A program made the translations under genes and the position numbers. The notes beneath the pieces were generated by a model. It had not been told where the DNA came from and searched no databases. It saw nothing but the letters and a program-made list of their open reading frames with translations. This document shows, in pieces, positions 56 to 20,000 of a stretch of 20,000 bases of DNA (its first letter is position 1; every line of letters starts with the position of its first letter). The stretch is from an uncultured virus (IMG/VR IMGVR_UViG_3300000868_000017) (lineage: Duplodnaviria > Heunggongvirae > Uroviricota > Caudoviricetes > Thumleimavirales > Hafunaviridae): IMG/VR virus record IMGVR_UViG_3300000868_000017. One strand, written 5' to 3'.

Positions 56-139
56 TCGACGACCCTTCGAGTTCTCTACTTGCTACTAATTTCATCGAGC
101 GGGGTATCCCTCCCGACGACTTCTAAGAATCATATAGGC

Positions 140-177: not shown

Positions 178-203
178 CAAGCACCCGCCCCTCATTTTCT
201 CTT

Positions 204-276
204 GCCGAGGTAGCACAACTGGTAGTGCGACGGATTGTTACTCCGTAGGTTGCAGGTTCGAGTCCTGCCTTCGGCG
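204..276 (+). tRNA. tRNA-Asn (GTT)
   Basis: Cloverleaf read by hand: acceptor GCCGAGG/CTTCGGC, D-arm GCAC/GTGC, anticodon stem ACGGA/TCCGT with loop TTGTTAC (GTT at 237-239), T-arm GCAGG-TTCGAGT-CCTGC, discriminator G276. No CCA is encoded. Confidence 0.93.
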
Positions 277-356
277 TTTCGCTACGACGCAAACACAATG
301 TCGTAGCCTGAGCTGAACCGACTGACGAGCAAACCAGAGAAACCTATACAGCAATA

Positions 357-1304: not shown

Positions 1305-1350
1305 ACACTCTTGGCGTAAAGACTCGGACGGACAACGTTAACTCATACAT

Positions 1351-1581
1351 ATGGACAAGGACGAAGCCAAGCAGTACGTGACGGAGGTACAGGTCGGAGC
1401 AGACAAGAAGAAACAGTTGGGTCAGTACGAACCGGCGACTGCCCACACGTTCCTCACCGCCGAGGTTCCCGCCGACGAAGACGTGGACGAGGTAATCGAG
1501 GCGCTGGAAGACCTCGCGTGGGAATCCACCGAGAGGAGCATCATGGAGCGGTGGGAGAAGCACGTCCGAAAGGACGAGTAG
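1351..1581 (+). CDS. Hypothetical protein
   Basis: 76 aa acidic ORF with typical codon usage, followed by a CTGTTTT tract. Confidence 0.75.
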   Translation: MDKDEAKQYVTEVQVGADKKKQLGQYEPATAHTFLTAEVPADEDVDEVIEALEDLAWESTERSIMERWEKHVRKDE

Positions 1582-1682
1582 GCTCTGTTTTCCCGCTCGA
1601 TGAAGTAGTATAGCAACCGGACTCAGGACATGAAATAGGCGTATGCAACGCAGTCCGTGAGACGACCTCGATTCCTCAATTA

Positions 1683-3149: not shown

Positions 3150-3262
3150 ACGGGCGTTGGACGTGCCGGTGCTGTGAAACCAGTACGGGCGGCCTCTCCG
3201 AATACTGCCCCGACTGTCAGAGCGCGGGTTGTACCAGCTTCGCCACGAGGTGTACCGAATGA
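3146..3262 (+). CDS. Small CxxC zinc-finger protein (38 aa)
   Basis: MNGRWTCRCCETSTGGLSEYCPDCQSAGCTSFATRCTE*, with an ATGA overlap on the upstream stop. Confidence 0.6.
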   Translation: MNGRWTCRCCETSTGGLSEYCPDCQSAGCTSFATRCTE

Positions 3263-3274
3263 CCACACTCACAC

Positions 3275-5691: not shown

Positions 5692-5776
5692 AGACTCGGA
5701 GACTTAACGGTGAGTCTTACGGAAGACTTAAGCAACGTTCTCTGATTCTTAGCAGTACGCAAAAGCAGGACACTAA

Positions 5777-6211
5777 ATGGATACTAAAGACGAGTTCTTC
5801 GGCAAGCCAAGAGCTGACACGGTTAAAATGGAGAGCGGCCCCGGAATCCACGACTACTGGGCGCTCCACAAGTTCGCACTCGAAACCGAGTACGACTGGA
5901 TGCCCACCCACCTCCGCTGTTACCACCCCGGACGGATGATTGACGGCGAGCTGATGGAAGGATACTATGACGAGTTCATTCCTATAGCTCACGACTCCCC
6001 GAGAGGCCGTGTGCTGAAGAAGAAAATCACGGAGGAAACCCTCTACTGCCCGGACTGTGAGGAAGCCGCGAAGAAGATAGACACGGGCGAGCCGGTTTGT
6101 CCCGAGTGCGGTCTTATCTGCGACGACGGGCGACCCACCTACGAGATCGTCAGCGACCCGAAGGCGGCGGGCCGAGTTGACACCCAATCTGGTTACTATG
6201 GAAGCGACTGA
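5777..6211 (+). CDS. Zinc-ribbon protein (TFIIB-type ribbon-like)
   Basis: CPDC...GEPVCPECGLI motif. Confidence 0.7.
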   Translation: MDTKDEFFGKPRADTVKMESGPGIHDYWALHKFALETEYDWMPTHLRCYHPGRMIDGELMEGYYDEFIPIAHDSPRGRVLKKKITEETLYCPDCEEAAKKIDTGEPVCPECGLICDDGRPTYEIVSDPKAAGRVDTQSGYYGSD

Positions 6212-6551
6212 ATCTATCACCGACACGACTGCCGAGTTGAAACGCCTGATGAACGAAACAACCGTGGAGATCGGAGGCGAGGACGAACGCCTCTCTGACC
6301 TCGTGGGCGACATTAAGACGGCTCATCAGGAGCTTGACGCCTACAAGTCGGGGGCACTCAAGCTGAGTAACGCCCTCGATGAGCGGATTCTCATGGCGAA
6401 GGGCGAAGACGACGAACAGCTCGTAGAGATTCTGGAAGGGATGAAGGAGTCTGCTTTCGGCGTTTACCTCAGACTTCAGCGCGGCGACCTCGAACTACTC
6501 GGAGAACGCGACGGCAAGCACTCCGGGTACTTCGCACCGGACGACGAGTAA
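6198..6551 (+). CDS. Hypothetical helical protein
   Basis: ATG at 6198 is in frame with the listed ORF. The product is acidic. Confidence 0.7.
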   Translation: MEATESITDTTAELKRLMNETTVEIGGEDERLSDLVGDIKTAHQELDAYKSGALKLSNALDERILMAKGEDDEQLVEILEGMKESAFGVYLRLQRGDLELLGERDGKHSGYFAPDDE

Positions 6552-6569
6552 CCACGCCCTCCACCACTA

Positions 6570-6956
6570 ATGATGAGCTTCGGCACAGACGGAATCAGCC
6601 ACAACATCCATCTCGCTCAGGTTGACGACGACGGCAACCTCACGAACTTCAAAGAGTACGAGAACGTAGTTGATGTGATGAACCTCCCTGACGGGACGGT
6701 GAAGTTCTACTACGAGAACGGACTCAAGCAGATTCAGGGCGGTCGAATCGTCCGGTCACAAGTTCGAGGCATCAAGGACGCCTTCCGCTACCGTTGTTCG
6801 GAGTGCGGTGACTTCGAGACGGACGTGATCAGCCAACGAGACAGGGGTGAGCAAACCGAGATGGTGTGTCCGGTTTGTGAAGAATCGACCGACCACGCTC
6901 GAATGGATGTGGACGAGATCAAATACGACCGAACACGACATGGACGAAGTGAATAA
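6570..6956 (+). CDS. Hypothetical protein with C-terminal zinc ribbon
   Basis: CSECG...CPVC motifs. Confidence 0.7.
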   Translation: MMSFGTDGISHNIHLAQVDDDGNLTNFKEYENVVDVMNLPDGTVKFYYENGLKQIQGGRIVRSQVRGIKDAFRYRCSECGDFETDVISQRDRGEQTEMVCPVCEESTDHARMDVDEIKYDRTRHGRSE

Positions 6957-7224
6957 CGGGAGACTGCTCGAAGAAGCGGCTGAAATCATCGAGGGGCGTT
7001 CGGAAACCCACGGCGCTCCCGAAGACTCCTTCCAACGAATCGCTCACTACTGGAACGCATACTTCATCAACACCGGAATCCCCGACCCGAACATCACCCC
7101 GTCCGACGTGGCGGATATGATGGCGCTGTTCAAACTCGCACGGGCACAGGGCGGGGATTACCACGAAGATGATTACCGTGACCGCCTCGGCTACGTCAAC
7201 CTCGCCAGCAACTTGCGACGATGA
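6940..7224 (+). CDS. DUF6378-like phage protein
   Basis: The pattern LEEAAEII.GR...HG.PEDSF.RIA.YW...DVA.MM.L.KLAR...D..D..GY was recognised from memory. ATG at 6940. Confidence 0.7.
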   Translation: MDEVNNGRLLEEAAEIIEGRSETHGAPEDSFQRIAHYWNAYFINTGIPDPNITPSDVADMMALFKLARAQGGDYHEDDYRDRLGYVNLASNLRR

Positions 7225-7382
7225 CAGAAGAAGACCAAGACCTACACGACGAGATCGACGCGCTCGCACTCGAAATCGAGCGGTCACTACGGTTGGCAAA
7301 AGAACGAAACAAGAAGTGGAAGGGAGTGTTCGACCCCGAACCCCGCGAGATGAAAGCCCAAGCGGAGGCCCTGTTCTCGTGA
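7221..7382 (+). CDS. Hypothetical protein (53 aa)
   Basis: MTEEDQDLHDEIDALALEIERS..., with an ATGA overlap upstream and a GTGA overlap downstream. Confidence 0.6.
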   Translation: MTEEDQDLHDEIDALALEIERSLRLAKERNKKWKGVFDPEPREMKAQAEALFS

Positions 7383-7567
7383 GCGTCGGACTTCCACCAG
7401 AGACGAAGGATATTCTGATGGACATTCTTCGTCGAGCCGCTTCGCAGGACAGAGCGGTAATCGAGTTCAAGAAGCGCGACGGTGAGCTTCACGCGATGGA
7501 CATAACGGAACACGTCGCCGTCCTCGAAGATGAGTACGAACAGCAAGACCACGGACAAACCGACTGA
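7379..7567 (+). CDS. Hypothetical protein (62 aa)
   Basis: GTG start overlapping the previous stop. This is the acidic C-terminal part of listed ORF 7169-7567. Confidence 0.55.
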   Translation: MSVGLPPETKDILMDILRRAASQDRAVIEFKKRDGELHAMDITEHVAVLEDEYEQQDHGQTD

Positions 7568-8456
7568 AGGAGGTAGGGATTTTCAAAACAAGGCGCACTA
7601 CGAATCCGGTAACGACGAACGCGGCACTCCTGTTGAACTCGCTCGCCAATTGAAGCGAGCGAACGGCGGACGATTCGACCTCGACCCCTGTTCTGGATGT
7701 GAACCCGAACCCATCGGACGGGAGCGATTCACGATAGAAGACGACGGCCTCGCTCAGCGGTGGTTCGGCTCGGTCTGGATGAACCCACCGTACTCCGATA
7801 TTGAGGACTGGATGAAGAAGGCCAGCACCGAGGCTCAGCGCGACGACGTGGACTACGTTCTCTGTTTGGTTCCGAACCGAACGAGTACGCAATGGTTCCA
7901 CAAATACGCGGTCGAAGCCGAGGTGTTCTGCGTTATCGAGGGCCGCCTCAAGTTCGAGCATACGGACGGGTCGGCTCCCTTCCCGAGCGCGATCTTCGCC
8001 TATGGGGAAGTTCCCGACGACGTGATGGACGTTCTCCACCACCGGGGGGCGGTCTACCACATCGAGGAGGGGGACGACGGCCAGCAAGTCCGTCTGATGG
8101 AATGGGCCGACGACGTGGAAGAACCAGAGGAGGACAACTCCATCGTCGTCTCTCAGTCCGAGTGCCAGCCGCTCAAGAGCGTCAACCTACACGACCGGCT
8201 CACGCTCCACATCAACGACAAAACGCTCGGAGCGCCCGATCACCTCGATGCGGTAGCGACGGTGGAAATCCTCGCCGGTCAGGTACGGAACGGTCAGCAG
8301 GAACTTCTCACGCAGATTCCCCAAGACGACCGAGACGGGACGTGGTATATGCTCTCTTACCCGGTGTTCGGTGACGGCTCGGTGTACGCCGCCGTCGAAG
8401 AACCGGGGAGTGGGTGGTACGACGTGATTCTCGAAAAAGTAGAAATCAATGAGTAA
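7530..8456 (+). CDS. Phage-type DNA N6-adenine methyltransferase (Dam-like family) with C-terminal extension
   Basis: TP...FDLDPC, DGL...W, NPPYS, LVP.RTSTQWFH, GRLKF and APFPS motifs. Confidence 0.88.
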   Translation: MSTNSKTTDKPTEGGRDFQNKAHYESGNDERGTPVELARQLKRANGGRFDLDPCSGCEPEPIGRERFTIEDDGLAQRWFGSVWMNPPYSDIEDWMKKASTEAQRDDVDYVLCLVPNRTSTQWFHKYAVEAEVFCVIEGRLKFEHTDGSAPFPSAIFAYGEVPDDVMDVLHHRGAVYHIEEGDDGQQVRLMEWADDVEEPEEDNSIVVSQSECQPLKSVNLHDRLTLHINDKTLGAPDHLDAVATVEILAGQVRNGQQELLTQIPQDDRDGTWYMLSYPVFGDGSVYAAVEEPGSGWYDVILEKVEINE

Positions 8457-9465
8457 AGCACTCACAGACGACGGAAACGAAATCGACCTCACGGTTCCCG
8501 ACGACCACCGTGAGAACGGACTCGAACACATCTCGAAGTCCCGAATCAAGACGTACCTCCAATGCCCGCGAAAGTTCTTCTACTCCTACTGGTGTGGGAA
8601 CCGGACGCCCGGCTCTTACCACACCGAGAAGGGGAGTCAGATTCACCGGGCCTACGAGACGTTCCACCTGAACCTGATCGAGTACGTCGAAGAACACGGG
8701 GAGCGCCCCGAGACGTATGCCGAGTTGATGGGGCCGTGGGAGGATTGGGCACAATGGCTCGAACCCCACATCCGCAACTTTTGGCAGTTCGAGGACGAGC
8801 GATGGGAGCTGGCTTGTGACTACGCCGCCGCGAAGTTCCGCGCTCTGGACGACCCCCGCGACGGGAAGAACGTGATGGAGTACGCCCTCGAAGCGTGGCT
8901 CCCCCTCGGGGTTGAAGTCGAAGGCCGACTCGAAGGCGACGACGTTCCTATCGGGAATCTTCCGTGGATGGGGTACGCCGACGCCCTGCTTCACGCCGCA
9001 ACGGTTCCCGGCGTCGAGGCGGAGGAAGGTGTGGTGATTGTAGACTACAAGACCGGGAAAGTTCAGGACGAGCAGTATCGCCACAAGGGAATCTACCTCG
9101 AAGGAGAGTTCTACGGGTGGCTGTTTGAGAACGAACTGGACTACGAAATCGCCGGGGTCGCCGGGTACTATCCACAGGAGGATGAGCTGGTCGTCAGCCC
9201 GTACCCGGACGAAGACCGGCGACACATCATCCGCAAGTCAGTCCTCGGGATGCAGATGAAGCCCGAGATCGGGAACTACGATCTCGAAACCGGCCCTCTC
9301 TGTCACTACGGTCACGGTAAGTGCTTCTTCTACGATCAATGCCCGTCGACGTGGGGGAAGAAGGGCGGAGAAGGCTACCACGGATTCGCGGAGCCTGATG
9401 GCTCTACGAAGCCGAAAGATGAGATTATCGAACACAAGCGAGAGAAGAATTGGTATCCCTACTGA
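8449..9465 (+). CDS. Cas4/RecB-like PD-(D/E)XK exonuclease
   Basis: S.S.I.TY.QCPR, G..IH, GYAD, DYKTG, and C-terminal C-x6-C-x5-C, giving 1+3 Cys like an Fe-S staple. Confidence 0.88.
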   Translation: MSKALTDDGNEIDLTVPDDHRENGLEHISKSRIKTYLQCPRKFFYSYWCGNRTPGSYHTEKGSQIHRAYETFHLNLIEYVEEHGERPETYAELMGPWEDWAQWLEPHIRNFWQFEDERWELACDYAAAKFRALDDPRDGKNVMEYALEAWLPLGVEVEGRLEGDDVPIGNLPWMGYADALLHAATVPGVEAEEGVVIVDYKTGKVQDEQYRHKGIYLEGEFYGWLFENELDYEIAGVAGYYPQEDELVVSPYPDEDRRHIIRKSVLGMQMKPEIGNYDLETGPLCHYGHGKCFFYDQCPSTWGKKGGEGYHGFAEPDGSTKPKDEIIEHKREKNWYPY

Positions 9466-9665
9466 TGGACTTCAATCTTCCTCACGACTGTACGAAGTGC
9501 GGAAAGACGTTCAACTACCTGAACCCGGAGTGTAACGACGACTACTACGTGGTTCAGAGACGGAGCGCCCGGTATCGCGGTTCTCTCAATTCAGTCGTCT
9601 ACTGTGAGAACTGCGCCCCGTTCGGGAACACGAAGATTCCCGGTCAGCTCGGGATGAATGAGTGA
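9465..9665 (+). CDS. Small zinc-finger protein
   Basis: CTKCG...YCENC, with a TGATG overlap on the nuclease stop. Confidence 0.65.
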   Translation: MDFNLPHDCTKCGKTFNYLNPECNDDYYVVQRRSARYRGSLNSVVYCENCAPFGNTKIPGQLGMNE

Positions 9666-9777
9666 CGGGGACGTATTCCTCCGGCTCTGTCTGATTCCCC
9701 TCGGTGTTCTCGTGCCGAGCTACGGACTTGGAACGATCTACGACTACCTGCGACACGAATACAATAACCGACAATGA
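9658..9777 (+). CDS. Small hydrophobic protein (39 aa)
   Basis: MSDGDVFLRLCLIPLGVLVPSYGLGTIYDYLRHEYNNRQ*. It fills the gap and overlaps both neighbours. Confidence 0.5.
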   Translation: MSDGDVFLRLCLIPLGVLVPSYGLGTIYDYLRHEYNNRQ

Positions 9778-9947
9778 CCGAAGGCAACCTCAGTTTCGTC
9801 CTGCACAACGAATCGTTCGATGACCTCGCCTCGATGCTCACGGAGTACGCTCAGATGAAGCGTGTTGTGAGACAGCACGAAGAAGCGGAGCAGGCGGAAA
9901 CCATCCGCAACACCCTGTACGCACAGCACGCTCACTCCCTCTCGTAG
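9774..9947 (+). CDS. Hypothetical protein (57 aa)
   Basis: MTEGNLSFVLHNESFDDLASMLTEYAQMKR..., with an ATGA overlap. Confidence 0.6.
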   Translation: MTEGNLSFVLHNESFDDLASMLTEYAQMKRVVRQHEEAEQAETIRNTLYAQHAHSLS

Positions 9948-9960
9948 CTGACAACTCCTA

Positions 9961-10875
9961 ATGAGTCTCACAGAATACGCAACGACCAGCGACAGCACCA
10001 GCTCACCCGACAAGATCGATGTTATAGTCACGTCCTGCGGCGGCGAGGATATGCCCCGAGCGGCCTACCGTGGTGGCTCGCTCGTGGGGATGGAAAGTAC
10101 GAAAGCCCGACCACCGGGGGAGATTCCGGTGGAGTTCGTCGATTGGCCGTTTCTTCAAGATGATCTATCGTTCGACCAGAAGTGGGAATCCCACCTCGAT
10201 GTGGTGAAGCGCGAGAAGCCAAAATATGCTGTTGCGCCTGATATTGAGGACAAGTCTTCCCTCAATTCTACTCTTGCTAAGGCTGACCAGCTTCGCCGCC
10301 ACGCAGAAATCGTCATTGTGGTTCCAAAGGGCGTCAAGCCCGACCGTGTACCCTCTCGGTTCCGCGTCGGACTCCCCGCTCAAGACCGCTTTGGTGGTGT
10401 ACCGTGGCCTGTATGGGAGTACCGTAACTGCCGAAGCGTTCACATCCTCGGTGGTAGCCCGCACCGACAATTCGAGTTATCCCACTACGTCCCCGTTCAC
10501 TCCGTTGACACCGCCTCTCCGCTGAAAGCGGCTCAATTCGGGAGTGTGTGGCAGGGCGATAAGTGGGGAGAGGACGGCTACAACTACTATGATCGCATCG
10601 AGCGGTCGATGGACAACGTCCTGCTCTCGTGGAACAAGGGCGACCGAGTTGACTCGGCGTTCCTGAACCGGCGACGGCGGGAGGTCGAACACCCACAAAC
10701 ACCCGCGATTCTCGAAAACGAGCGGAAGGCGCGACCTCCCTCTCGTGACGAACTCTGTATCGGCTCGGACGAGGAACACCCGTTCCCCGGTCGGGCGTAC
10801 TTCTACCGCGACGACACGCTCTCCTACCCCGAGTGGAAGGAGGAATACCGGGGCGAGTCCCCGGCTTGGCTCTAA
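9961..10875 (+). CDS. TGT/DpdA-like TIM-barrel protein (DUF6610-like)
   Basis: FVD...VAPD...VVPK...VG...VHILGGSP...SVDTAS follows the order of guanine-transglycosylase-like barrel motifs. The family call is from memory. Confidence 0.55.
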   Translation: MSLTEYATTSDSTSSPDKIDVIVTSCGGEDMPRAAYRGGSLVGMESTKARPPGEIPVEFVDWPFLQDDLSFDQKWESHLDVVKREKPKYAVAPDIEDKSSLNSTLAKADQLRRHAEIVIVVPKGVKPDRVPSRFRVGLPAQDRFGGVPWPVWEYRNCRSVHILGGSPHRQFELSHYVPVHSVDTASPLKAAQFGSVWQGDKWGEDGYNYYDRIERSMDNVLLSWNKGDRVDSAFLNRRRREVEHPQTPAILENERKARPPSRDELCIGSDEEHPFPGRAYFYRDDTLSYPEWKEEYRGESPAWL

Positions 10876-10940
10876 TTCTCTCTGTTTTCGGTCGAAATGC
10901 CGTCAGCATCCGCTGGCGGCGCGGCACGGAATCCAGAGAC

Positions 10941-11060
10941 ATGACTAACTGCCGAAAATGCGACAAACGAGAGCCTATTCCCGGCAAGTCGCTCTGTCCT
11001 CTCTGTTTTGAGGTGACGAAGAACGCGACGATGAGGGAAAAACAACGAGATAATGAGTAG
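10941..11060 (+). CDS. Small CxxC zinc-finger protein (39 aa)
   Basis: MTNCRKCDKREPIPGKSLCPLCFEV... Confidence 0.6.
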   Translation: MTNCRKCDKREPIPGKSLCPLCFEVTKNATMREKQRDNE

Positions 11061-11493
11061 CACACTACACGACTTCACCGACGTAGAACCGCTCGTCGTT
11101 CGAGAGATCAAGCCGCTCCGGTATCCCGACAATCCCAAGAAGTTCGTCGGATTCCTCGGCCCCTCGAACCGGGACGCGAACTGTATCGTCTGTCAGCGGA
11201 AGCGACATCCCTACTGGGAGGACGGCGAACAGAAACAGCACTTCTACCGGAAAGGCGGTGGGTACTCGTTCAGCGAGTCTACCCTTGGCCTGCTCCGGCG
11301 AGCGAATGTTACTCGAATCGTGATCGAGGAGACGGACAACGACCGTCTTCTGGAATTTAACCTCGTGGACTACGAGAAGGGCAATTTCTCGAATGAGATG
11401 GGCGACGACCCTCAGCGATTCGTCCCCGTCGATGAAGCCCTCCACGAGTGGACTGCCGCTGAATCGACCATCATCCGCGACCACAATCTATGA
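11053..11493 (+). CDS. Hypothetical protein
   Basis: 146 aa ORF overlapping both neighbours. Confidence 0.7.
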   Translation: MSSTLHDFTDVEPLVVREIKPLRYPDNPKKFVGFLGPSNRDANCIVCQRKRHPYWEDGEQKQHFYRKGGGYSFSESTLGLLRRANVTRIVIEETDNDRLLEFNLVDYEKGNFSNEMGDDPQRFVPVDEALHEWTAAESTIIRDHNL

Positions 11494-11606
11494 AGAATCA
11501 GAGTCACCAGCAAGCCGCGCCGTGCGGATGTGATAGCCCGCGAATCGCCCCTCAGGGCGGTTGCGAAACGTGCCTGAACTGCGGGTGGAGTGCCTGCCTC
11601 ATTTGA
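11490..11606 (+). CDS. Small zinc-ribbon protein (38 aa)
   Basis: MKNQSHQQAAPCGCDSPRIAPQGGCETCLNCGWSACLI*. It has an ATGA overlap upstream and ends 1 nt before the polB ATG. Confidence 0.65.
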   Translation: MKNQSHQQAAPCGCDSPRIAPQGGCETCLNCGWSACLI

Positions 11607-11607
11607 A

Positions 11608-14172
11608 ATGAAGGAAATCTACGTTACTAACACCGAACTCGTCTATGAGGATTACACGCCGAAAATCAAACTGTTCGGTCGAACTGAAGCGGGAAAGCCG
11701 GACTCGGTGACGGTGGAGAACTTCGACCCCTACTTCTACGTCCCGGCGGCGGAGAAGGGGGAGGTTGACCCGTTCGATAATGACCACATCGAGGGGTACG
11801 AAGACACCGAGTTCACCGGCCTCGTCGACGGCGACGGGCTGGCGAAGGTTATCGTCAACAACCCGAAGAAGATGGGAGAGGTTGCGTCGTTCTTCTCGAA
11901 GTCGTGGGAAGCCGACGTGGACTACACCGACCGGCTCCGAATCGACCTCGGCATCAAGACCGGCGTTCGAGTCCCCGGCGACCGGGTGACTCCCGACGAG
12001 GTCGAGCCGGTGGAGATGGACGCGCCGCCCCGCGTGATTACGTTCGACATTGAGACAGACGACCGGGGTGAAGGGTTCCCCGACTACGGGAAGGCCCGTA
12101 TCCTCTCCATCGTCGCTCACGACAACTACACCGACGAGTACGTGGGCTTCATCGACCTCGATGGTCACGGGCTTGGGGAACGCTTCCCCGACGCCAACCT
12201 CGATGCGGTGAGCCACCCGAGCGATCTCGGCCTCGAACACCTGAGTCAGCTCAAGTTCGAGCCGGACGAGCGGAAGATGCTCACGGCGTTCACCCGCTAC
12301 GTTCAGGACAAGGACGCCGACCTCATCTGCGGGTGGAACAGCAACGGGTTCGACACCCCGTTCGTAATCGAGCGGATGAAAGAGCGCGGTGTCAACGCCG
12401 ACCGCCTCTCCCGTACCGGGAACTCCTACACCGGGTACAACGGCCCGACGATTCAGGGGCGTACCTGCTACGACCTGATGGACGCTTGGAAGGACACCAA
12501 GTTCACGAAGGTCAGCGGGGCGCTCGATTCTGCCGCCGAGATGGAGTTGGACGACGCGAAGATCGAACACACGGACAAGGGGTTCTACGAGCTATACTCG
12601 GAGAACACGCAGAAGTTCCTCAACTACAACACGAAGGACGTTTTCCTGACGGTCGGCGTCAACGAAGCCGCGAACGTTCTCGCGTTCAAGAAGGCACTCC
12701 GTGATACGATTGGTCTGGACTTCGAGCAGACCACGGCTAACAACGAGTTCATCGAGATGATGATTCGCCGGAAGCTCTACAACGAGGGCTACGCCGGGCC
12801 GACCGCGACGGAGCCGGAGGACACGGGGAGCTACGACGGAGCCTACGTGTTCGACGCCTTCAACGGCCTCAAGGAGAACATCGTCGGAATTGACCTTGCT
12901 TCGCTGTATCCGAACGCGCTCTGGATGCTGAACGCCAGCCCGGAGACGAAGGTTGACCCCATCCACGTAGAGGAACACGACGACGGCCTGTACGCTGTCC
13001 TCGAAGAAGGGGGCGACCTCGTGCCGGTGGCAAAGGCCGCGAATGACGTTTACTTCCGTCTCGACTATGACGGCGTGTTCCGTGAGCTGGTGGATGAAGC
13101 TCTCCACCTGAAGGAACACGCTGGCGAGATGAAGAAGGACGACTCGCTCAGCCCCGAGGAGAAGGCGAAATGGGGAGAGGAGTATAGTGTCAGGAAGACT
13201 ATAGTTAACTCGATCTACGGCGTTTTGGGGTGGGTTCGGTTCTTCCTCTACGACGCCGATATTGCCGCCGCTGTCACCCTCACGGGGCAGGCGGTGATTA
13301 AGCGTACTGCGAAGTATGTGGACGAAGAAAGTATCGCAAATGTATCATATGGAGATACCGACTCAAATTATATAGAGTTTGATAGTTCTCTGAGCCAAGT
13401 GGAATGTCTTGAAGCCGCGAAAGAAATCACGGACACCCTCAACAACGAGGTCTATGTTGACCTCGCCGCAGAGTACGGGATGCCGACCGACCCGTGCCGG
13501 TTCGAGATCGAGATCGAGATGTACGCCTCTCGGTTCTTCATGTCCGGGCAAAAGAAGTTCTACGCCTACGTGAAGATGTGGGACGAGGGGATGGACTACG
13601 ACGCCACCCTGAAAGACGGGAAGGGGAAGTTGTCCATCAGCGGCTACCCGTGCAAGAAGAACAACACGGCTCAGCTCACCAAGGAGGTTCAACGGGAAGT
13701 CCTCGAAACCATCGTCCGTGGTGGTGACGAGAACGACATTCGCCGTATCATTCGGGAAGGGGCCGAACGCATCGACGCCTCTAACCCCGACTTCGATCTC
13801 ATCGGAATCCCCGGCGGCCTTGGAAAAGAACTGGACGACTACTCGTGGTCGGACGGGACACCGAAGGGAGCTTCGCCCCGAGCGGCGTTCTACGCTAACA
13901 AGTTCATCAAGGACTGCAACTTCGGGAAGGGGAACACGGTCAAGCGGGTGTACCTCAAGCACACGACGCTCGGAGAAGACACGCTCGATGTGATTGGATA
14001 CGAGCGGGGAGCGCAACTGGACGACCTCCGTGACCAGCTCACCGTGGACGTGAAGCGGATGCAGGACACTCTCGTTCGGAACTCGATGGTGGACATCCTC
14101 GACGCCGTGGGCATCGACGTGGACGCCGCAATCGAGGGGCAGAGTCAGACCGGACTCGCCGCGTTCTGCTAA
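11608..14172 (+). CDS. polB: Family B DNA polymerase
   Basis: ExoI FDIET, ExoII WNSNGFD, ExoIII YNTKD, pol A DLASLYPN, pol B KTIVNSIYG and pol C YGDTDS. No intein is present. Confidence 0.97.
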   Translation: MKEIYVTNTELVYEDYTPKIKLFGRTEAGKPDSVTVENFDPYFYVPAAEKGEVDPFDNDHIEGYEDTEFTGLVDGDGLAKVIVNNPKKMGEVASFFSKSWEADVDYTDRLRIDLGIKTGVRVPGDRVTPDEVEPVEMDAPPRVITFDIETDDRGEGFPDYGKARILSIVAHDNYTDEYVGFIDLDGHGLGERFPDANLDAVSHPSDLGLEHLSQLKFEPDERKMLTAFTRYVQDKDADLICGWNSNGFDTPFVIERMKERGVNADRLSRTGNSYTGYNGPTIQGRTCYDLMDAWKDTKFTKVSGALDSAAEMELDDAKIEHTDKGFYELYSENTQKFLNYNTKDVFLTVGVNEAANVLAFKKALRDTIGLDFEQTTANNEFIEMMIRRKLYNEGYAGPTATEPEDTGSYDGAYVFDAFNGLKENIVGIDLASLYPNALWMLNASPETKVDPIHVEEHDDGLYAVLEEGGDLVPVAKAANDVYFRLDYDGVFRELVDEALHLKEHAGEMKKDDSLSPEEKAKWGEEYSVRKTIVNSIYGVLGWVRFFLYDADIAAAVTLTGQAVIKRTAKYVDEESIANVSYGDTDSNYIEFDSSLSQVECLEAAKEITDTLNNEVYVDLAAEYGMPTDPCRFEIEIEMYASRFFMSGQKKFYAYVKMWDEGMDYDATLKDGKGKLSISGYPCKKNNTAQLTKEVQREVLETIVRGGDENDIRRIIREGAERIDASNPDFDLIGIPGGLGKELDDYSWSDGTPKGASPRAAFYANKFIKDCNFGKGNTVKRVYLKHTTLGEDTLDVIGYERGAQLDDLRDQLTVDVKRMQDTLVRNSMVDILDAVGIDVDAAIEGQSQTGLAAFC

Positions 14173-14633
14173 TGCCCTCCGAAAGACCGTGGCAAGATGA
14201 AGATACGCTTAGAGAAGCGTACTCGCGCCACCATTCTACCCGGAAGGTCGCAAGCGAACTCGGTTGTGGCAAGGAGACGGTGAGACGCTGGATGGAGCGG
14301 TTCGGCATCGAGCGCACCGGATTGAAGTATAGTGTTGCAGTTACAGAGCGCCCCGATGGTTACGAACAGCTCACGGTGAACATCGACGGGAAAGCGCACT
14401 CCGTACTCCACCATCGGCTTCTCGCCGTTGCGAAGTACGGGTACGACGCCGTAGTTGGAAAAGACGTTCACCACACCAACTCGATGAAGTTGGATAACCG
14501 ATTGGAGAACATCGAAGTTCTCGATCACGCCGACCACACCGCCCTACACAACAAGGAAGCCGAAATGACTCGAAACGATTTGGGTCAGTTCGTCTCCGAG
14601 AATAACAACCAATGTGTGAAACCTGCTACGTAG
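14172..14633 (+). CDS. HTH-HNH endonuclease (putative free-standing homing endonuclease)
   Basis: N-terminal HTH (STRKVASELGCGKETVRRW), then HRLLA...VHH.N..KLDNR.ENI...H...H. Confidence 0.85.
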   Translation: MPSERPWQDEDTLREAYSRHHSTRKVASELGCGKETVRRWMERFGIERTGLKYSVAVTERPDGYEQLTVNIDGKAHSVLHHRLLAVAKYGYDAVVGKDVHHTNSMKLDNRLENIEVLDHADHTALHNKEAEMTRNDLGQFVSENNNQCVKPAT

Positions 14634-14746
14634 AAGATAAGCTGAACAGCCTGCTGAATACCGGCAACGACCAAGATGTGAACACCGAGGTAATGGAGTC
14701 TCACTTCGTTGCCGCCGAGATCGGCCTCGGTCGGGTGTTAGAATGA
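14612..14746 (+). CDS. Small CxxC protein (44 aa)
   Basis: MCETCYVEDKLNSLLNTGNDQD...RVLE*. Its stop overlaps the ATG at 14743. Confidence 0.5.
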   Translation: MCETCYVEDKLNSLLNTGNDQDVNTEVMESHFVAAEIGLGRVLE

Positions 14747-15301
14747 ACGAGACAATCGCTATCGTCGGGTGTGGGGCCGCCAAGCGCGACGAAGCAAGCC
14801 GGGCGGAAGACCTCTACACCTCGAATTACTTTAGACCTTAAGCGGCGCTACGCGGAGACATTCTACGATAAGTGGGTGATCGTCTCTGCTGAACACGGGT
14901 TCGTCCCTCCGTGGAAGGAACTGGAACCCTACGAGACTCACATCGACGACCGCGACCTCGATGTGTTCGTAGACCAGCTTGCCCACGGGAATTTCTGCTC
15001 GCTGAAGTCCCCCTTCGTGGGGCTTGATTACGCCGACGAGATAGACGTTCTCGCCGGGAAGAAATACTGTGACGCTATCCAGCAGGCGGCCCGGAAAGAG
15101 GATAGCATTATGGACGAGCTGAACAGCGACCAACCTCGGATAGCTCCGAATCTCTCCTTTCCGTTTCAGGAAGCCGGGCTGTCCGGTATCGGCAAGCAAA
15201 TGTCGTGGTTGAAGACGGCGCTGGTCGAACACGTAAAGCGCCCGCCGGAGGGAAAGTACCAGACTCAAGTGAGCCTTGATCGCTACTCGATACTCGGTTA
15301 A
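14743..15301 (+). pseudogene. DUF6884-like protein split by a +1 frameshift near 14833-14838
   Basis: Frame A reads MNETIAIVGCGAAKRDEASRAEDLYTSNYFRP* (stop 14839-41). The +1 frame continues LKRRYAE...W.IVSAEHG. Joined, they give the GC..K...A.DLYTS.YF..KR.YAE...SA.HG signature. Confidence 0.7.
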
Positions 15302-15314
15302 GGCTCAAAGAAGA

Positions 15315-15352
15315 ATCTTTAAGTCTTTACTCAGCGTCTATTAGAGTGAGGA
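15315..15352 (+). promoter_or_regulatory. Intergenic repeat copy 2, TATA-type promoter for the thyX-dcd unit
   Basis: ATCTTTAAGTC-N10-GTCTATTAGA-GTGAGGA matches 140-177. Confidence 0.7.
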
Positions 15353-15383
15353 GCGGCTGTTTTGCGGAACCAGAACGAATCTA

Positions 15384-15551
15384 ATGAGATATATCACTCC
15401 TGTTACACAAGACGAACTTGCATCAATGCTCGCTGACGTTCTCAGCGACGTACTACGAAAGGACTGCCGCATCGAGGGGTTTCAGGAAACCCATCATTTC
15501 AATCCTGAACTGACCGAGATCGAGTTCTCCATCTCCTACTACCACGAATGA
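15384..15551 (+). CDS. Hypothetical protein (55 aa)
   Basis: MRYITPVTQDELASMLADVLSD..., lying downstream of the repeat promoter with an ATGA overlap on thyX. Confidence 0.55.
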   Translation: MRYITPVTQDELASMLADVLSDVLRKDCRIEGFQETHHFNPELTEIEFSISYYHE

Positions 15552-16252
15552 AAGTCGAACTAAAGACCGAATACAGCACACCGAACGCCGACGATGTTCC
15601 CGTGATTGCGGCTCGGGGAGACTACATGAGCGAATCCCTCGTCGGTAAGACCGTCGAGGATGCCCTCGAAGGGACGGACAAGACCCACGAGGAACTACTC
15701 GGTGAACTACTCCGACGCGGCCACTTCGGGCCGTTTGAACACATCCAAGCGTTCTTCGCGGTCGAAGGACTCAGCCGGTCGGCTATGGCTCAGGTAACGC
15801 GACACCGCCACATGAGCTTCGACGTTCAGAGCCAACGCTACTGCGATTTCTCTGAGAAGAACATCGTCGTTCCACCGGGCGACAAGAACAACCCCGGAGC
15901 CGACGACGTGGTTCTCGGCCAGTACGATGGCCCCGCCGAAGACTTCACCGGGGAGGACGCTTTCGAGGGACACTTCCTGAACTCAGTCGAGCTGTATGAA
16001 CGGCTCATCGAGCAAGGGATGGCGAAGGAGGACGCCCGATTCATCCTCCCCATCGGCGTGGAGGTTGACCTAACGTTCTCTGCGAACGCTCGAACCCTGA
16101 TGCACTTCTTCGATCTGCGGAAGAACATGAAGGCCCAATGGGAGGCCCGCGAGTTCGCTACTCAGGTTCTCGATGAGTGTAAGAAGTGGTCGCCGCTCGT
16201 CTTCTCCGCCTACGAAACCCACCTGAACAACAACTCGATTCGCGCCCCATGA
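15548..16252 (+). CDS. thyX: Flavin-dependent thymidylate synthase
   Basis: H..PFEH, the RHR-x7-S motif (RHRHMSFDVQSQRY), EDARFILP and AQWE.R. Confidence 0.96.
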   Translation: MKVELKTEYSTPNADDVPVIAARGDYMSESLVGKTVEDALEGTDKTHEELLGELLRRGHFGPFEHIQAFFAVEGLSRSAMAQVTRHRHMSFDVQSQRYCDFSEKNIVVPPGDKNNPGADDVVLGQYDGPAEDFTGEDAFEGHFLNSVELYERLIEQGMAKEDARFILPIGVEVDLTFSANARTLMHFFDLRKNMKAQWEAREFATQVLDECKKWSPLVFSAYETHLNNNSIRAP

Positions 16253-16797
16253 TTCTGTCTCAGCACGATATTCAGCACTCGATTAGCCGTGGCGATCTCG
16301 GGGCCGTTCGTGGCAACGGGAAGACGCTCGCTGTGGAACCTGCCTCGATGGATTTGCACCTCGGGTCGGAGCTTCGGATTCCTGCCGCGACCGGCGTGGT
16401 CGAGGTGGACGACGCCGACACTTACCCCGGTCACTACGAAAGAACCAGCGAGCTTTCGCTCTCTCCCGGCAAGTTCGCGCTGGCCCATACGGAGGAGAAC
16501 ATCACCGTCCCCGACGACAAGGTAGGAATCCTCCACGGTCGCTCGTCGGTCGGGCGGCTCGGCCTGTTCATCCACAATGCGGGCTTCATCGACCCCGGCT
16601 TCCGGGGACAGATCACGCTCGAATTGTTCAACGCCGCTCCGTACCCTATCCGTCTCCGCGATGGGATGCGGATTTGCCAGCTCGCCCTTCACGATATGAA
16701 GACGAAGCCGGACGTGGCGTACTCCGAGGAGAACGGGAACAAATACAACGACCAGACCGGGCCGACTCCCTCCCGACTCTACGAGGATTTCCGGTGA
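16249..16797 (+). CDS. dcd: dCTP deaminase
   Basis: MILS, PAS.DL.LG, GRSS.GRLG, IDPGFRGQITLE, ICQL and Y..Q. The ATG at 16249 overlaps the thyX stop. Confidence 0.93.
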   Translation: MILSQHDIQHSISRGDLGAVRGNGKTLAVEPASMDLHLGSELRIPAATGVVEVDDADTYPGHYERTSELSLSPGKFALAHTEENITVPDDKVGILHGRSSVGRLGLFIHNAGFIDPGFRGQITLELFNAAPYPIRLRDGMRICQLALHDMKTKPDVAYSEENGNKYNDQTGPTPSRLYEDFR

Positions 16798-16817
16798 GAG
16801 ATAACACTCAAGTAGGT

Positions 16818-16851
16818 ATCTTTAAGTCATATAGTACCCTCTGGTACTATA
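16818..16851 (+). promoter_or_regulatory. Partial third copy of the promoter motif followed by a 9-bp inverted repeat
   Basis: ATCTTTAAGTC (16818-28), then TATAGTACC-ctct-GGTACTATA (16830-51). Confidence 0.5.
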
Positions 16852-17082
16852 CGACGAAACATCCGAATTAGCTCGCGAGAACGCACAACGCGGGCGAAAT
16901 ATCTATCTTAGATATATACTCTAAGAAGTTACCTACGTTGAGTTTTACCACATCGAGGGTTGTTCACTCAACTAAGACAGTACCGTAGTAGAACACTTAG
17001 AGTTAAACACAGAGTAGTGAATAACCTGTGAGGATTTTTAACAGCAAGTGGTTTTTCAGTACCCCACATCAAACATCAGGGT

Positions 17083-17559
17083 ATGTCGTCTGACCAACCG
17101 GATGGGGTTATGACTCTGGAACTTTCCGGGGAAGATGGACTCCACGCCTTCAACCAGTTCATCAAGGAAGCGGGATTCGCTGATTCAGTCGAATCAATCA
17201 GCGTCAGAATCGAAGCTGACTCTCCGATTGACTTGACGGAATACATCACGGGCGAATCCATAGAGCCGAAAGAATCCGAAGACGACGACCCCGAGATCGT
17301 CAACTTCGAGGAGGGGTCGCGGACGCGGATGCTCGCTGAATTTCTATACGAACACAACGGCGAGAAGTGGCATACGACGACTGAGATCAGGGAAAAGCTC
17401 CCTGAGGATTCAGAAATAGACCCGGACGACGTGAGCCAAATTCTGTGGGAACTTTCGGAGCGCGACGTTGTGGAGAAACAGCCTCACGATGGAGACGGGC
17501 GGAAGAAGGAATACCGACTGAACGAGCGTGGGATGAAATCGGTGGACGACCTGTTATAG
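17083..17559 (+). CDS. Winged-helix (MarR-like) transcriptional regulator
   Basis: C-terminal TTTEIREKL...VSQILWELSERDVVEK...DGRKKEYRLNERG is a wHTH/wing pattern. Confidence 0.75.
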   Translation: MSSDQPDGVMTLELSGEDGLHAFNQFIKEAGFADSVESISVRIEADSPIDLTEYITGESIEPKESEDDDPEIVNFEEGSRTRMLAEFLYEHNGEKWHTTTEIREKLPEDSEIDPDDVSQILWELSERDVVEKQPHDGDGRKKEYRLNERGMKSVDDLL

Positions 17560-17563
17560 AAAC

Positions 17564-18133
17564 TCACGAGGAAGGGAGTCTCTTGCGAATGGCTTTGTGG
17601 AACCACTCCCCTCTCTCCATATCTCTGTTATTCCACTCTCTGCGCTGGATTCTAAATAGATACTTCAACTCGTGGAATATCCAAGCAATCCAAGATATGA
17701 GGACAAATCCAGCGAATAGGTACTGGATGGTCGGATTCAACTGATACGATTGTAGAAGGAATAGTAGTCCAGAAAACAGCAGGAGGCCCGAGTATCTGAG
17801 TGCGGTGATTTGTAGATGGAATAGAACCACTCGAACGTCGCTAAAGAGTTCTAGAATGAATGTTAGCATCAAGAAACCAGCACAGAGACTCAAGATACCA
17901 ATTGTGAGTTCCTGATAGTAGCCCATCTCAGTATCTTCCAAGACAAATTGAATTATAACTAAAACAATAGCAAAGAGAGCTATCGACTCGGATGCAGTTC
18001 TATCAACCACAGACATTGAATCCTTAGATGAAGGAGCCTCGCTGATTGATGCTGGATTAATCAAAATCTGGACGACGGGTACGAATATAAAAATGCCAAG
18101 TAAAACAAGATACACCTCACCAATAGAGATCAT
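17564..18133 (-). CDS. Hypothetical multi-pass membrane protein (~5 TM, 189 aa)
   Basis: The ATG at 18133 is 4 nt after the stop of micro-ORF 5. It has five hydrophobic stretches, a basic C-terminal tail and low GC. Confidence 0.8.
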   Translation of the reverse strand: MISIGEVYLVLLGIFIFVPVVQILINPASISEAPSSKDSMSVVDRTASESIALFAIVLVIIQFVLEDTEMGYYQELTIGILSLCAGFLMLTFILELFSDVRVVLFHLQITALRYSGLLLFSGLLFLLQSYQLNPTIQYLFAGFVLISWIAWIFHELKYLFRIQRREWNNRDMERGEWFHKAIRKRLPSS

Positions 18134-18137
18134 CAAA

Positions 18138-18248
18138 CTATTCTCGATGTTCAAAACAGTAGTCGTGTTCTCGTCCTACTGCTGTTTTACATCCTGATTC
18201 AGCACAGGTCTTCTGTAACGCTTCAGTTTCAAATTCGTCGTCAGACAT
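18138..18248 (-). CDS. CCCH zinc-finger microprotein, array copy 5 (36 aa)
   Basis: MSDDEFETEALQKTCAESGCKTAVGREHDYCFEHRE*. Confidence 0.85.
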   Translation of the reverse strand: MSDDEFETEALQKTCAESGCKTAVGREHDYCFEHRE

Positions 18249-18250
18249 AA

Positions 18251-18364
18251 TCACTCACGATGTTTTGGACAAAATTCGTGTTCTCGACCAATCGGGGTAT
18301 CGCACCCCGATTTAGCACATAGACTGAGCTTTTGATCTATTCCAAGGGGGTCATCTTCAGACAT
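18251..18364 (-). CDS. CCCH zinc-finger microprotein, array copy 4 (37 aa)
   Basis: MSEDDPLGIDQKLSLCAKSGCDTPIGREHEFCPKHRE*. Confidence 0.85.
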   Translation of the reverse strand: MSEDDPLGIDQKLSLCAKSGCDTPIGREHEFCPKHRE

Positions 18365-18366
18365 AT

Positions 18367-18483
18367 TCACTCTCGATGCTTTGGACAGAATTTGTGTTCT
18401 CGCCCAATGCTGGCTTTACAACCGTCTTCGAGGCACACTTTGACGTTAGCGGCGATATGCGGGTTTCCTTTATCATCAGACAT
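18367..18483 (-). CDS. CCCH zinc-finger microprotein, array copy 3 (38 aa)
   Basis: MSDDKGNPHIAANVKVCLEDGCKASIGREHKFCPKHRE*. Confidence 0.85.
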   Translation of the reverse strand: MSDDKGNPHIAANVKVCLEDGCKASIGREHKFCPKHRE

Positions 18484-18494
18484 AGTTGACTAGA

Positions 18495-18605
18495 TTAGTC
18501 CTCGCGGTGTTTCAAACAGTAATCATGCTCTCGACCAACGCGCCTTCCACAGCTATCTTCTCTGCACGCTCTTTGTAGTTCCCGTCGATCATCATCTCCA
18601 GACAT
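18495..18605 (-). CDS. CCCH zinc-finger microprotein, array copy 2 (36 aa)
   Basis: MSGDDDRRELQRACREDSCGRRVGREHDYCLKHRED*. Confidence 0.85.
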   Translation of the reverse strand: MSGDDDRRELQRACREDSCGRRVGREHDYCLKHRED

Positions 18606-18715
18606 TATTCTCGATGTAGAGGACAGTAATCGTCCTCCTTGCCAACTTGATTGTCACAGCCGGATTCTAAACACGTCTTGTATTTTCTAATCGGTTCTCT
18701 GTCGTCCCCGCTCAT
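18605..18715 (-). CDS. CCCH zinc-finger microprotein, array copy 1 (36 aa)
   Basis: MSGDDREPIRKYKTCLESGCDNQVGKEDDYCPLHRE*, with a TAATG overlap on copy 2. Confidence 0.85.
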   Translation of the reverse strand: MSGDDREPIRKYKTCLESGCDNQVGKEDDYCPLHRE

Positions 18716-18806
18716 GCCTTAAGGCTGTAAACCTCAATACATTAGTTTTGCGGGAGTGAAAGGGAGAATATCGGATTTTACCTTCCTCGTTGGCAGATAT
18801 AAATGC

Positions 18807-20000
18807 CTACCAGATTTGTTCGACCGCGCTCCCTCGGGTGTCCGAGTCCGAGTGGAGGTACTTCATCGTCGTCGTGACGCTCTTGTGCCGGAGTTGTTCT
18901 TTCGCGTGGTGCGGGCCGACGTGGTTTGCCCAATACGTTGCTACGCCGTGTCGGATGGAGTACCACGAGATTTCGTTCTCGCGGTGTTCGGGAATCGGGA
19001 CGTTCCCCGACTCGATGATTCGATCAAGCAGACCGTTACACGAGTCGGAGTTGTACGGCTTCGCCTTCTGCGTGAGCCATAGATCGTCCCGACCGTCGTA
19101 CTTCTCCATCGTACTCCGCTCATTTATCCAACGTTCGAGGGCCTTCGCTGTCCGGCTCTGGATAGCGCAGTTCCAATGTCCCTCGTTCTTCGTGGATTCA
19201 GTCTTCGGGATGTTCAGCTCGTTATCTTCGAGGTTCACCCAAGACACCTTGGCGCGACCCACCTCGATGGGGCGGAGTCCCGTGTCCAGCGTCGTCGCAA
19301 TCATTGAGGGGTACTTCCACGAGTTTGCCCGTTTGAACTCCTCGGGGCCGACGTTCGACTTTGGGACTTGGAGCCGCTGAGAGACGTAGGACTTCAGCTC
19401 CTTGCGTTCCTCTGGTGAGCAGGAGTAGTAGCTCTTGACCGACGAGTGTTGGAGCGCGGCCTGATACAGCGGCTCGAACGCGGCGCGGCGTAGGTACTCT
19501 CGCTCATCGCCGTTGCTCGCGGAGAGTTCGAGATCGAGTTCCCACTCGTACTCCTTCCCGCGTGCGTGGTTGCAGAAGCGGAAGTACCGCTTGATGTCCT
19601 TCGCGTGGTGGAGTACGGTGCTGTCAATCATCGAGTCGGCCTGATTCAGGACGGTGATGAACTTGTCAGCGTGTTCGGGTGTGAACGTCGTGGTGTATTG
19701 GCCTTCGTACTTCCAGAGCCAGCGGAAGACGGTTTCGAGCTTGTAGTGGGTACTCTCAAGCGTGGTGGGGGCCAGCCCTTCGTGCTTGTCGGGGTTCTTC
19801 CCGTAGTTCCCGAGCCACGTCAGCACGTCCTTCTTGAAGTCTTGGTAGTCCTGAACCATGTTGAGGCCGAACTCCGCGAGGTCTTCGCGCGAGCGTTTGC
19901 TCACGAGGGGGAAGCTGAACTCGATGGGTTCGGGCGCGGGTGGTATATCCTCGGATGCCGCGCTCATTTTCATCCCTTCGAGCGGGTCGTCGCGGTTCAT
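18807..20000 (-). CDS. int: Tyrosine recombinase/integrase (may extend beyond the window)
   Basis: GLRPIE (R), IPK (K), YSIRH (H/Y-x-x-R), LRH and TTMKY (catalytic Tyr). The ATG is at the window edge. Confidence 0.92.
   Translation of the reverse strand: MNRDDPLEGMKMSAASEDIPPAPEPIEFSFPLVSKRSREDLAEFGLNMVQDYQDFKKDVLTWLGNYGKNPDKHEGLAPTTLESTHYKLETVFRWLWKYEGQYTTTFTPEHADKFITVLNQADSMIDSTVLHHAKDIKRYFRFCNHARGKEYEWELDLELSASNGDEREYLRRAAFEPLYQAALQHSSVKSYYSCSPEERKELKSYVSQRLQVPKSNVGPEEFKRANSWKYPSMIATTLDTGLRPIEVGRAKVSWVNLEDNELNIPKTESTKNEGHWNCAIQSRTAKALERWINERSTMEKYDGRDDLWLTQKAKPYNSDSCNGLLDRIIESGNVPIPEHRENEISWYSIRHGVATYWANHVGPHHAKEQLRHKSVTTTMKYLHSDSDTRGSAVEQIW

Follow-up and report, generated by a model that had tools for sequence, protein, structure and literature searches.

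The window analysed here, a stretch of 20,000 nucleotides (nt) from the uncultured virus IMGVR_UViG_3300000868_000017 of the family Hafunaviridae, contains a compact group of six genes on its minus strand: five tandem genes for zinc-finger microproteins followed by the gene of a small membrane protein, together referred to below as the cassette. The gene order on this strand is integrase, five microprotein genes and membrane gene, with the last converging on a plus-strand gene for a winged helix-turn-helix (HTH) protein (Table 1). An original prediction, made by a model from the letters of the sequence, had placed five open reading frames (ORFs) of 36, 36, 38, 37 and 36 amino acids (aa) on the minus strand at 18138-18715, and these were found with the spacing claimed. 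The first two overlap by 1 nt (TAATG), the next inter-ORF gaps are 11, 2 and 2 nt, and a gap of 4 nt separates the last microprotein gene from the ATG of the membrane gene at 18133. The prediction had also described the genes as hidden, but they are annotated in GenBank relatives, where gp52-56 of HJTV-2 and gp43-47 of HRTV-13 correspond to the five microproteins and gp57 and gp48 to the membrane protein, every one of them as a hypothetical protein. No family was found for any of the six cassette proteins in Pfam, NCBIfam or PADLOC.

All five microproteins begin with an acidic MS(D/E/G)D start, continue with a linker that is specific to the paralogue and end with the finger, the chain stopping two to three residues past the last ligand. 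Alignment of the five (A1) gave M1, S2, D4, C15, C20, G25, E27, C31, H34, R35 and E36 as invariant, and extension to 45 family members (A3) reduced this set to M1, C15, C20, G25, C31 and H34. The four ligands thus retained form a CCCH site with the spacing C-x4-C-x10-C-x2-H, which is a predicted zinc finger. The histidine of the 'GREH' stretch is not a ligand, because it varies among relatives (GKED, GRGY, GRER). The C-x4-C...C-x2-H motif occurs five times in the window, each time in an array copy, and a profile built from the five peptides gave no other match better than E = 3.9 among all six-frame ORFs of the 20 kb; the array members score 1e-19 to 1e-23 on their own profile by construction and the informative part is the empty background. 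Tandem Repeats Finder reported no DNA-level repeat in the array, even at a minimum score of 30, and the similarity of the copies is therefore held at the protein level. Orthologues of microprotein 1 occur in HJTV-2, HRTV-13, Halorarius, Halosimplex and metagenomes, the IAAN/IVAN type of linker seen in microprotein 3 recurs in distant arrays (L025, L015, P0007), and the type of microprotein 5, the copy proximal to the membrane gene, was found in every array.

Table 1. The cassette and its borders in the window (positions are those of the 20,000-nt stretch)
Feature	Position	Strand	Basis or remark
Integrase gene	18807-20000	-	Pfam Phage_integrase, 5.8e-16
Integrase 3' end, the remnant stretch found with host cassettes	18807-19037	-	blastn homology ends at 18883-19037
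Leader and presumed promoter region (promoter role inferred)	18716-18806	-	Alignment A5; block by the ATG conserved in host copies
Microprotein 1 (36 aa, linker REPIRKYKT)	18605-18715	-	ORF call; copy farthest from the membrane gene
Microprotein 2 (36 aa, linker RRELQRA)	18495-18605	-	ORF call, orthologues, tree
Microprotein 3 (38 aa, linker with IAAN motif)	18367-18483	-	ORF call, orthologues
Microprotein 4 (37 aa from ATG at 18364, linker PLGIDQKLSL)	18251-18364	-	ORF call, clade in tree
Microprotein 5 (36 aa from ATG, linker EFETEALQKT)	18138-18248	-	ORF call; proximal copy
Membrane protein (189 aa), constant partner of the array	17564-18133	-	ATG start agrees with orthologues; AF2 model; linkage
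Convergent winged-HTH gene, other border of the slot	17083-17559	+	phrog_20636, 1.2e-82; 'winged HTH' in relatives

Conservation of the array and of its membrane partner

Selection on the array was estimated as the ratio of non-synonymous to synonymous rates (dN/dS) by the Nei-Gojobori method, with the five genes concatenated as positional orthologues, in the 15 pairs formed by the window, HJTV-2, HRTV-13, the Halorarius plasmid, Halosimplex halobium and one metagenome contig. All five copies were present in relatives as intact positional orthologues at ~80-85% nucleotide identity, and dN/dS lay between 0.05 and 0.15 in 15/15 pairs; the window and HJTV-2, for example, differ at 33 synonymous changes over 109 sites and 16 non-synonymous changes over 440 sites. 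The view that selection has acted on the protein and not on a DNA repeat is borne out by this ratio of about 0.1 together with the blank repeat search. When the linker (the part before the first cysteine) was treated separately, the 12 pairs with dS > 0.2 gave dN/dS values of 0.08-0.15 and the three closest pairs gave 0.17-0.24; for the finger, 14/15 pairs gave 0.07-0.14 and the closest pair gave 0. Purifying selection acts on both segments, at about equal dN/dS. The N-termini had been called hypervariable; the linkers do differ among paralogues but they are conserved among orthologues, and the term is therefore unsupported. Of the proposed constant metal-binding module carrying variable specificity segments, the constant CCCH module and the paralogue-specific N-termini stand, and the hypervariability of the segments falls away.

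The history of the copies was followed in a maximum-likelihood tree of 45 members over 37 columns, in which many forks are unresolved. Positional orthologues clustered, with clade support of 99/94 for copy 1, 96/98 for copy 4, 90/91 for copy 3 and 86-87 for copy 2, and the proximal copies from all arrays appeared as short basal branches. In the Haloplanus and Halorubrum arrays the distal copies formed a joint group (93/80), which points to a lineage-specific expansion. In the four-copy array of one metagenome contig (L017) the copy at L017:170-271 (+) has the linker and head of class 2 and the finger tail of class 3, and this chimera is most readily read as the footprint of a one-unit deletion through unequal recombination. 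Every ligand is intact in at least 47 finger copies from 12 distinct cassettes and, on this pattern of conservation, the five ORFs are to be regarded as real genes.

The membrane protein was modelled by AF2 with a pLDDT of 84 and a pTM of 0.79 as five long hydrophobic helices with a basic amphipathic C-terminal tail; from the distribution of charge, the tail and a conserved loop (residues 26-46) probably face the cytoplasm. Its family consists of 23 clusters at 90% identity and reaches down to 39-40% protein identity. An Atlas search with the protein returned unnamed clusters only, and among the PHROGs no match was better than E = 0.2. As a side observation, the sequencing runs X14, X15 and X20 (cultured 'organism A/B', their RNA nature only guessed) yielded just one contig piece of 254-256 nt from the membrane gene, corresponding to window positions 17862-18135 with identity or 3 differences, and nothing else from the region; the DNA run X2 spans the entire cassette.

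When the alignment of the membrane protein was used as bait 17 loci were recovered (5 genome, 11 metagenome and 1 viral), and in 17/17 there were two to five finger ORFs directly upstream on the same strand. Merging of near-identical loci and addition of the window left 12 distinct cassettes, with five finger copies in six of them, four in two, three in one, two in two and at least two in one whose contig is cut. The reverse search with the finger, over one genome per species (185,579 species), found three true haloarchaeal loci, all three with the membrane gene. A scan of the same genome set with a DNA pattern of the finger gave multi-copy matches only in the same five haloarchaeal loci, and three of the four bacterial single matches look like chance, lying in non-coding frames. 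The original prediction had asked whether such arrays recur elsewhere, vary in copy number and stay with the membrane protein, and each of these was found to hold, with arrays of 2, 3, 4 or 5 copies; no routinely frameshifted array and no solitary haloarchaeal copy was found. Across the 12 distinct cassettes the five-helix membrane protein was the only conserved neighbour, other neighbours varying by context. The five microprotein genes and the membrane gene are thus, on the evidence of their linkage, one six-gene, operon-like unit. Prediction of a complex of the membrane protein, zinc and the proximal microprotein scored 0.00 in two runs that were made without controls and is neutral on binding.

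Distribution of the cassette among viruses and hosts

Bases 1-17000 of the window matched 41 phage records at 80-90% identity and all 41 were HF1/HF2-like tailed haloarchaeal viruses; the nine whose taxonomy was checked all belong to the genus Haloferacalesvirus, family Hafunaviridae. The window has a typical replication module, with PolB, Dam methylase, a PD-(D/E)XK nuclease, ThyX and dCTP deaminase as well as an HNH endonuclease and a tRNA-Asn. A tblastn search of 50,697 phage records found microproteins together with the membrane protein in only five records, representing the four viruses HJTV-2 (two records), HRTV-24, HRTV-13 and HRTV-21, each with five finger copies. The slot between integrase and winged-HTH gene is empty in HRTV-10, HCTV-7 and HRTV-15. 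In HSTV-3 it holds a 48-aa ORF, and in HJTV-3 and HRTV-16 it is taken by another gene, of about 286 aa. HRTV-13, which has the cassette, and HCTV-7, from which it is absent, are filed under one species. The G+C content of the cassette is 0.43-0.44, as against 0.51-0.63 in the remaining 500-nt windows. Comparison of these genomes indicates that the cassette is accessory cargo of a variable integrase/winged-HTH slot in Haloferacalesvirus genomes.

The tRNA-Asn (GTT) lies at window positions 203-277 (+), and the HF1-group viruses Hardycor2 and Serpecor1 are likewise reported to carry a tRNA-Asn (PMC7230728). The HNH endonuclease is a free-standing HTH_50 plus HNH_3 protein without the CCCH finger, encoded at 14172-14633 (+), and the first base of its gene is the last base of the PolB gene (11590-14172).

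Copies of the cassette were also found in islands of haloarchaeal chromosomes and on one plasmid, again in cargo positions. The blastn homology between window and host copies has a sharp end at the stop of the membrane gene (17563) and ends on the other side at 18883-19037, so that the two have in common only the cassette and 78-230 nt of the 3' end of the integrase gene. The integrase piece of L006, a plasmid of Halorarius halobius, is a frameshifted remnant. The Halorarius copy and that of Halosimplex halobium have the cassette alone in common, at 92% identity between unrelated flanks, whereas the plasmid and a scaffold of Halosimplex salinum (L007) agree over ~6.8 kb around the cassette at 98-99.9% identity, which suggests a recent transfer between genera. 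Integrase genes or their remnants adjoin the cassette in the viruses and in loci L006, L023 and L020, the last two being more distant cassettes that lie beside tyrosine recombinase genes. The host cassette has stayed intact after the loss of the remaining virus, and dN/dS between L006 and L008 is 0.13. The simplest reading is that the host copies would derive from an integrase-cassette junction of the viral type, of which the cassette was kept after the remainder had been lost. Judged from its junctions the cassette is mobile as one unit between viruses, chromosomes and a plasmid. Genes for YdjM-family membrane proteins were seen near the cassette in two otherwise unrelated contexts, at L015:795-1337 (-) and L016:3-968 (+), and this may be coincidence.

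Relatives of the finger

A profile search of 1.84 billion representatives returned 17 proteins at E up to 0.001. Small array members accounted for 15 of these clusters, four of them miscalled as longer proteins, of which at least one (P0010) reads into an alternative frame of the upstream copy; the remaining two were a repeat-rich false positive and an HNH endonuclease (P0017). A homologue search with a 40-codon reference recovered only the HJTV-2 orthologue, and a search for longer, fused forms, in which 8000 candidates were scored, yielded nothing but one array member miscalled at 78 aa, which is weak evidence on such forms. In the endonuclease P0017 two fingers of this type (27.7 and 23.1 bits with the A3 profile) stand ahead of an HNH_3 domain and an HTH, and proteins like it match 1752 phage records. 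In addition 31 of the 45 family members matched phrog_144, 'HNH endonuclease', at its N-terminal positions ~17-46, although these matches are weak for single sequences (best E 1.5e-4). The likeness extends to both ligand pattern and local sequence, C-x4-C ... G-[RK]-E ... C-x2-H. By sequence the finger of the microproteins is therefore to be considered related to the N-terminal finger of phage HNH homing endonucleases. The microproteins differ from these enzymes in that their 36-38 aa end after the finger, with neither an HNH nuclease (no HNH_3 match) nor an HTH, and in that two to five individual genes encode them, in linkage with the gene of a membrane protein. One actinobacterial protein, with a length of at least 820 aa (L039:1338-3797, +), has several C-x4-C...C-x2-H fingers before a Phage_integrase domain (6.4e-11), and fingers of this kind may thus be used by tyrosine recombinases in addition to HNH endonucleases; L039 is a lead only, because it was picked by motif in a pattern scan.

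The AF2 model of the finger is a beta-hairpin followed by a short C-terminal helix. A PDB profile search by sequence gave nothing below E = 0.95, and the weak rows of a Foldseek search with the model were the FUS zinc finger, A20 ZF7 and AN1. The A20 match (3vuy_D) had E = 8.3 and a root-mean-square deviation of 1.6 over 24 columns. The A20-type finger has the ligands C-x2-4-C-x11-C-x2-C in a treble-clef-like fold; in the microproteins the fourth ligand is histidine and the spacing is x10.

Two other groups of small cysteine-rich proteins invite comparison. Haloarchaeal CxxC or C(P)XCG micro-proteins have two CxxC pairs within 70 aa or fewer, whereas the ligands here are C-x4-C and C-x2-H with no CxxC pair, and a survey for CxxC would for that reason miss the cassette microproteins. 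Small CxxC zinc-finger proteins (PMC7230728 and the paper of Nagel et al. 2019 to which it refers) are abundant in HF1-group viruses, with function unknown, and are like the cassette microproteins in being very small, one-domain proteins; the available part of PMC7230728 makes no mention of paralogues arrayed in tandem with a membrane partner of their own. The second group is defined by the EsV-1-7 cysteine-rich motif (Pfam PF19114), a putative zinc finger of brown algae and phaeoviruses, which resembles the present finger as a short Cys/His motif of virus-linked proteins with a tendency to tandem arrays (bioRxiv 10.1101/2024.02.19.579948). EsV-1-7 was the first named cluster in an Atlas feature search, at a score of 0.78, which being below 0.9 makes it a lead only. 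PF19114 (EsV_1_7_cys) was matched by two of the 45 members (best E = 0.022, far below the gathering score) and, at E up to 10, by none of the five microproteins of the window.

Possible roles of the cassette

The anatomy set out above, of real genes that form one unit and travel as a mobile accessory, can be held with high confidence. What the cassette does is a different matter, and a mechanism in which it acts as a conflict module is a tentative proposal, held with rather low confidence. Under this proposal the fingers would be soluble proteins that recognise nucleic acid or protein, with a fixed target for each paralogue, and they would act with or through the membrane protein as a common effector or anchor. 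The role would lie in conflict between mobile elements, that is in superinfection exclusion, abortive infection or an addiction-type module. The original prediction had likewise offered sensor, decoy or antitoxin as possible roles. One analogy is the lambda Rex exclusion system, in which RexA is the sensor and RexB a membrane protein; the cassette would operate like this pair, with a soluble sensor or sensors and a small polytopic membrane effector beside the genes for lysogeny in a virus capable of a temperate life. Neither in sequence nor in fold was a relation to the Rex proteins found.

Several observations are suggestive of such a role. The gene that occupies the slot in HJTV-3 (gp46, 286 aa, L003:1012-1872, -) matches the PADLOC candidate defence family PDC-S05 at 7.6e-18, together with a weak PLD-like match, and is a virus-borne candidate defence gene; HRTV-16 has a counterpart of like size at L029:704-1561, the PDC-S05 match being established for the HJTV-3 gene only. 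In the plasmid element of Halorarius halobius the cassette has as its neighbour, on the other strand, a TIR gene (L006:5305-6129, -, which equals L016:3729-4550, -) that matches Pfam TIR_2 at 4.1e-16 and the ThsB-like PADLOC family PDC-S66 at 1.7e-34. To the slot gene and the TIR neighbour can be added the adjoining integrases and the persistence of the cassette in hosts.

Several results weigh against this proposal. The six cassette proteins matched no family of PADLOC-DB 2.0 at E up to 1 and 39 other neighbouring ORFs gave no PADLOC match at 0.001, so that the association with defence rests on one plasmid lineage and one slot substitution. The model of the finger is only moderately confident (pLDDT 68), and Foldseek found no match to it in the PDB at E up to 0.001. 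Binding of zinc, nucleic acid or protein is deduced from the ligand pattern and from homology to the finger of HNH endonucleases, and expression of the cassette is presumed. A wide structure search with the membrane protein in VIA-align gave generic helical bundles only, with Z at most 9.0, which is below the level that the tool calls meaningful for helical proteins.

The strongest rival explanation, possible though improbable on balance, is that the microproteins are regulators that bind DNA or RNA and tune host or viral expression, for example in a lysogeny module, with the membrane protein a separate co-transferred gene or a tether. HF1-group viruses encode many small zinc-finger proteins that are thought to be interaction or regulatory modules (PMC7230728), and in HF2 the attP site, a small CxxC protein gene and the integrase gene form one transcription unit with a single promoter (PMC8707807). 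The finger is moreover common to enzymes that act on DNA, the HNH endonuclease P0017 and the tyrosine recombinase L039. The strict two-way linkage to the membrane protein, which holds down to 39-40% protein identity, would be unexpected for a stand-alone regulator, and the host cassettes persist without viral genes to regulate.

The idea that the cassette is a toxin-antitoxin-like addiction system, with a membrane-damaging toxin that is neutralised by the microprotein or microproteins, above all the proximal copy, and that stabilises the carrier replicon, is rather less probable again. It would account for a cassette that chromosomes and a plasmid have kept whole, under purifying selection, once the surrounding virus was lost, for the presence of the proximal finger type in every array immediately before the membrane gene, and for an element in which Halorarius and Halosimplex agree at 98-99.9% identity. 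It would however be unusual for one toxin to have two to five differentiated antitoxins, and no similarity to a known toxin or antitoxin family was found in Pfam, PHROGs, NCBIfam or PADLOC. This explanation overlaps with the conflict proposal, because abortive-infection modules are often of toxin-antitoxin type.

The kinship of the finger with phage endonucleases leads to a further, distinctly unlikely explanation, in which the free fingers would be dominant-negative 'microProtein' mimics that compete with HNH homing endonucleases or finger-bearing integrases by occupying their DNA sites or partners and so shield the carrier genome from invasion or cleavage. The sequence relationship to fingers fused to HNH_3 nucleases is clear, P0017-like endonucleases are common (the 1752 phage records given above) and the virus carries a free-standing HNH endonuclease gene of its own. 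That endonuclease is however without this finger, none of the haloarchaeal loci examined showed an HNH gene with the finger, and the membrane protein would be left without a role.

It is very unlikely that the microproteins are precursors of secreted or modified peptides, resembling halocins or ribosomally synthesised and post-translationally modified peptides, for which the membrane protein would provide immunity or export. Peptide precursors had been one of the options offered by the original prediction, and a row of small peptide genes with a small polytopic membrane protein may resemble the loci of leaderless multi-peptide bacteriocins. The membrane protein is the only conserved partner, and the cassette is accompanied by no conserved modifying enzyme, ABC transporter or signal peptide. 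The peptides themselves are acidic and hydrophilic, what they conserve is a metal site of four ligands, as is typical of folded fingers in the cytoplasm, and the variable part is under purifying and not diversifying selection. Finally, the possibility of chance ORFs or a decaying DNA repeat, for which small size and the lack of a Pfam or NCBIfam match might be cited, is refuted by the pattern of conservation, with dN/dS about 0.1 in every pair, all ligands intact in the at least 47 copies of the 12 cassettes, no DNA-level tandem repeat and 15 small-protein clusters among the 1.84 billion representatives.

Returning to the conflict proposal, the best overall explanation, which is favoured but falls short of an even chance, is a six-gene mobile cassette with a mechanism of this kind. 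Its boldest form, for which the expectation must be low, is an array of zinc-finger sensors each tuned to a different invader cue and gating one membrane effector, in which specificities would be gained and lost by unequal recombination while the unit hops between viruses, plasmids and chromosomes beside integrases; this would be a new modular class of exclusion or defence system.

No description of the cassette layout was found in the literature searched, the original paper on HJTV-2 and its siblings lying outside that search. The microproteins belong to the general kind of small zinc-finger protein known from HF1-group viruses, and what appears to be new is the tandem arrays of paralogues and the constant membrane partner. 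Haloarchaeal viruses and their hosts are rich in zinc-finger microproteins whose roles are almost entirely unknown (PMC7230728). The cassette provides a clean entry point to them, as a small family of 15 microprotein clusters with an identifiable partner, for which there are natural presence/absence variants in cultured siblings (HRTV-13 and HCTV-7) and variants in copy number from 2 to 5. If a role in exclusion or addiction were true, a sensor layout based on microproteins would be added to the known archaeal conflict systems and a function would be given to the widespread uncharacterised N-terminal finger of phage HNH endonucleases. If the microproteins are plain regulators, the cassette still documents the transfer of a self-contained microprotein operon from virus to host.

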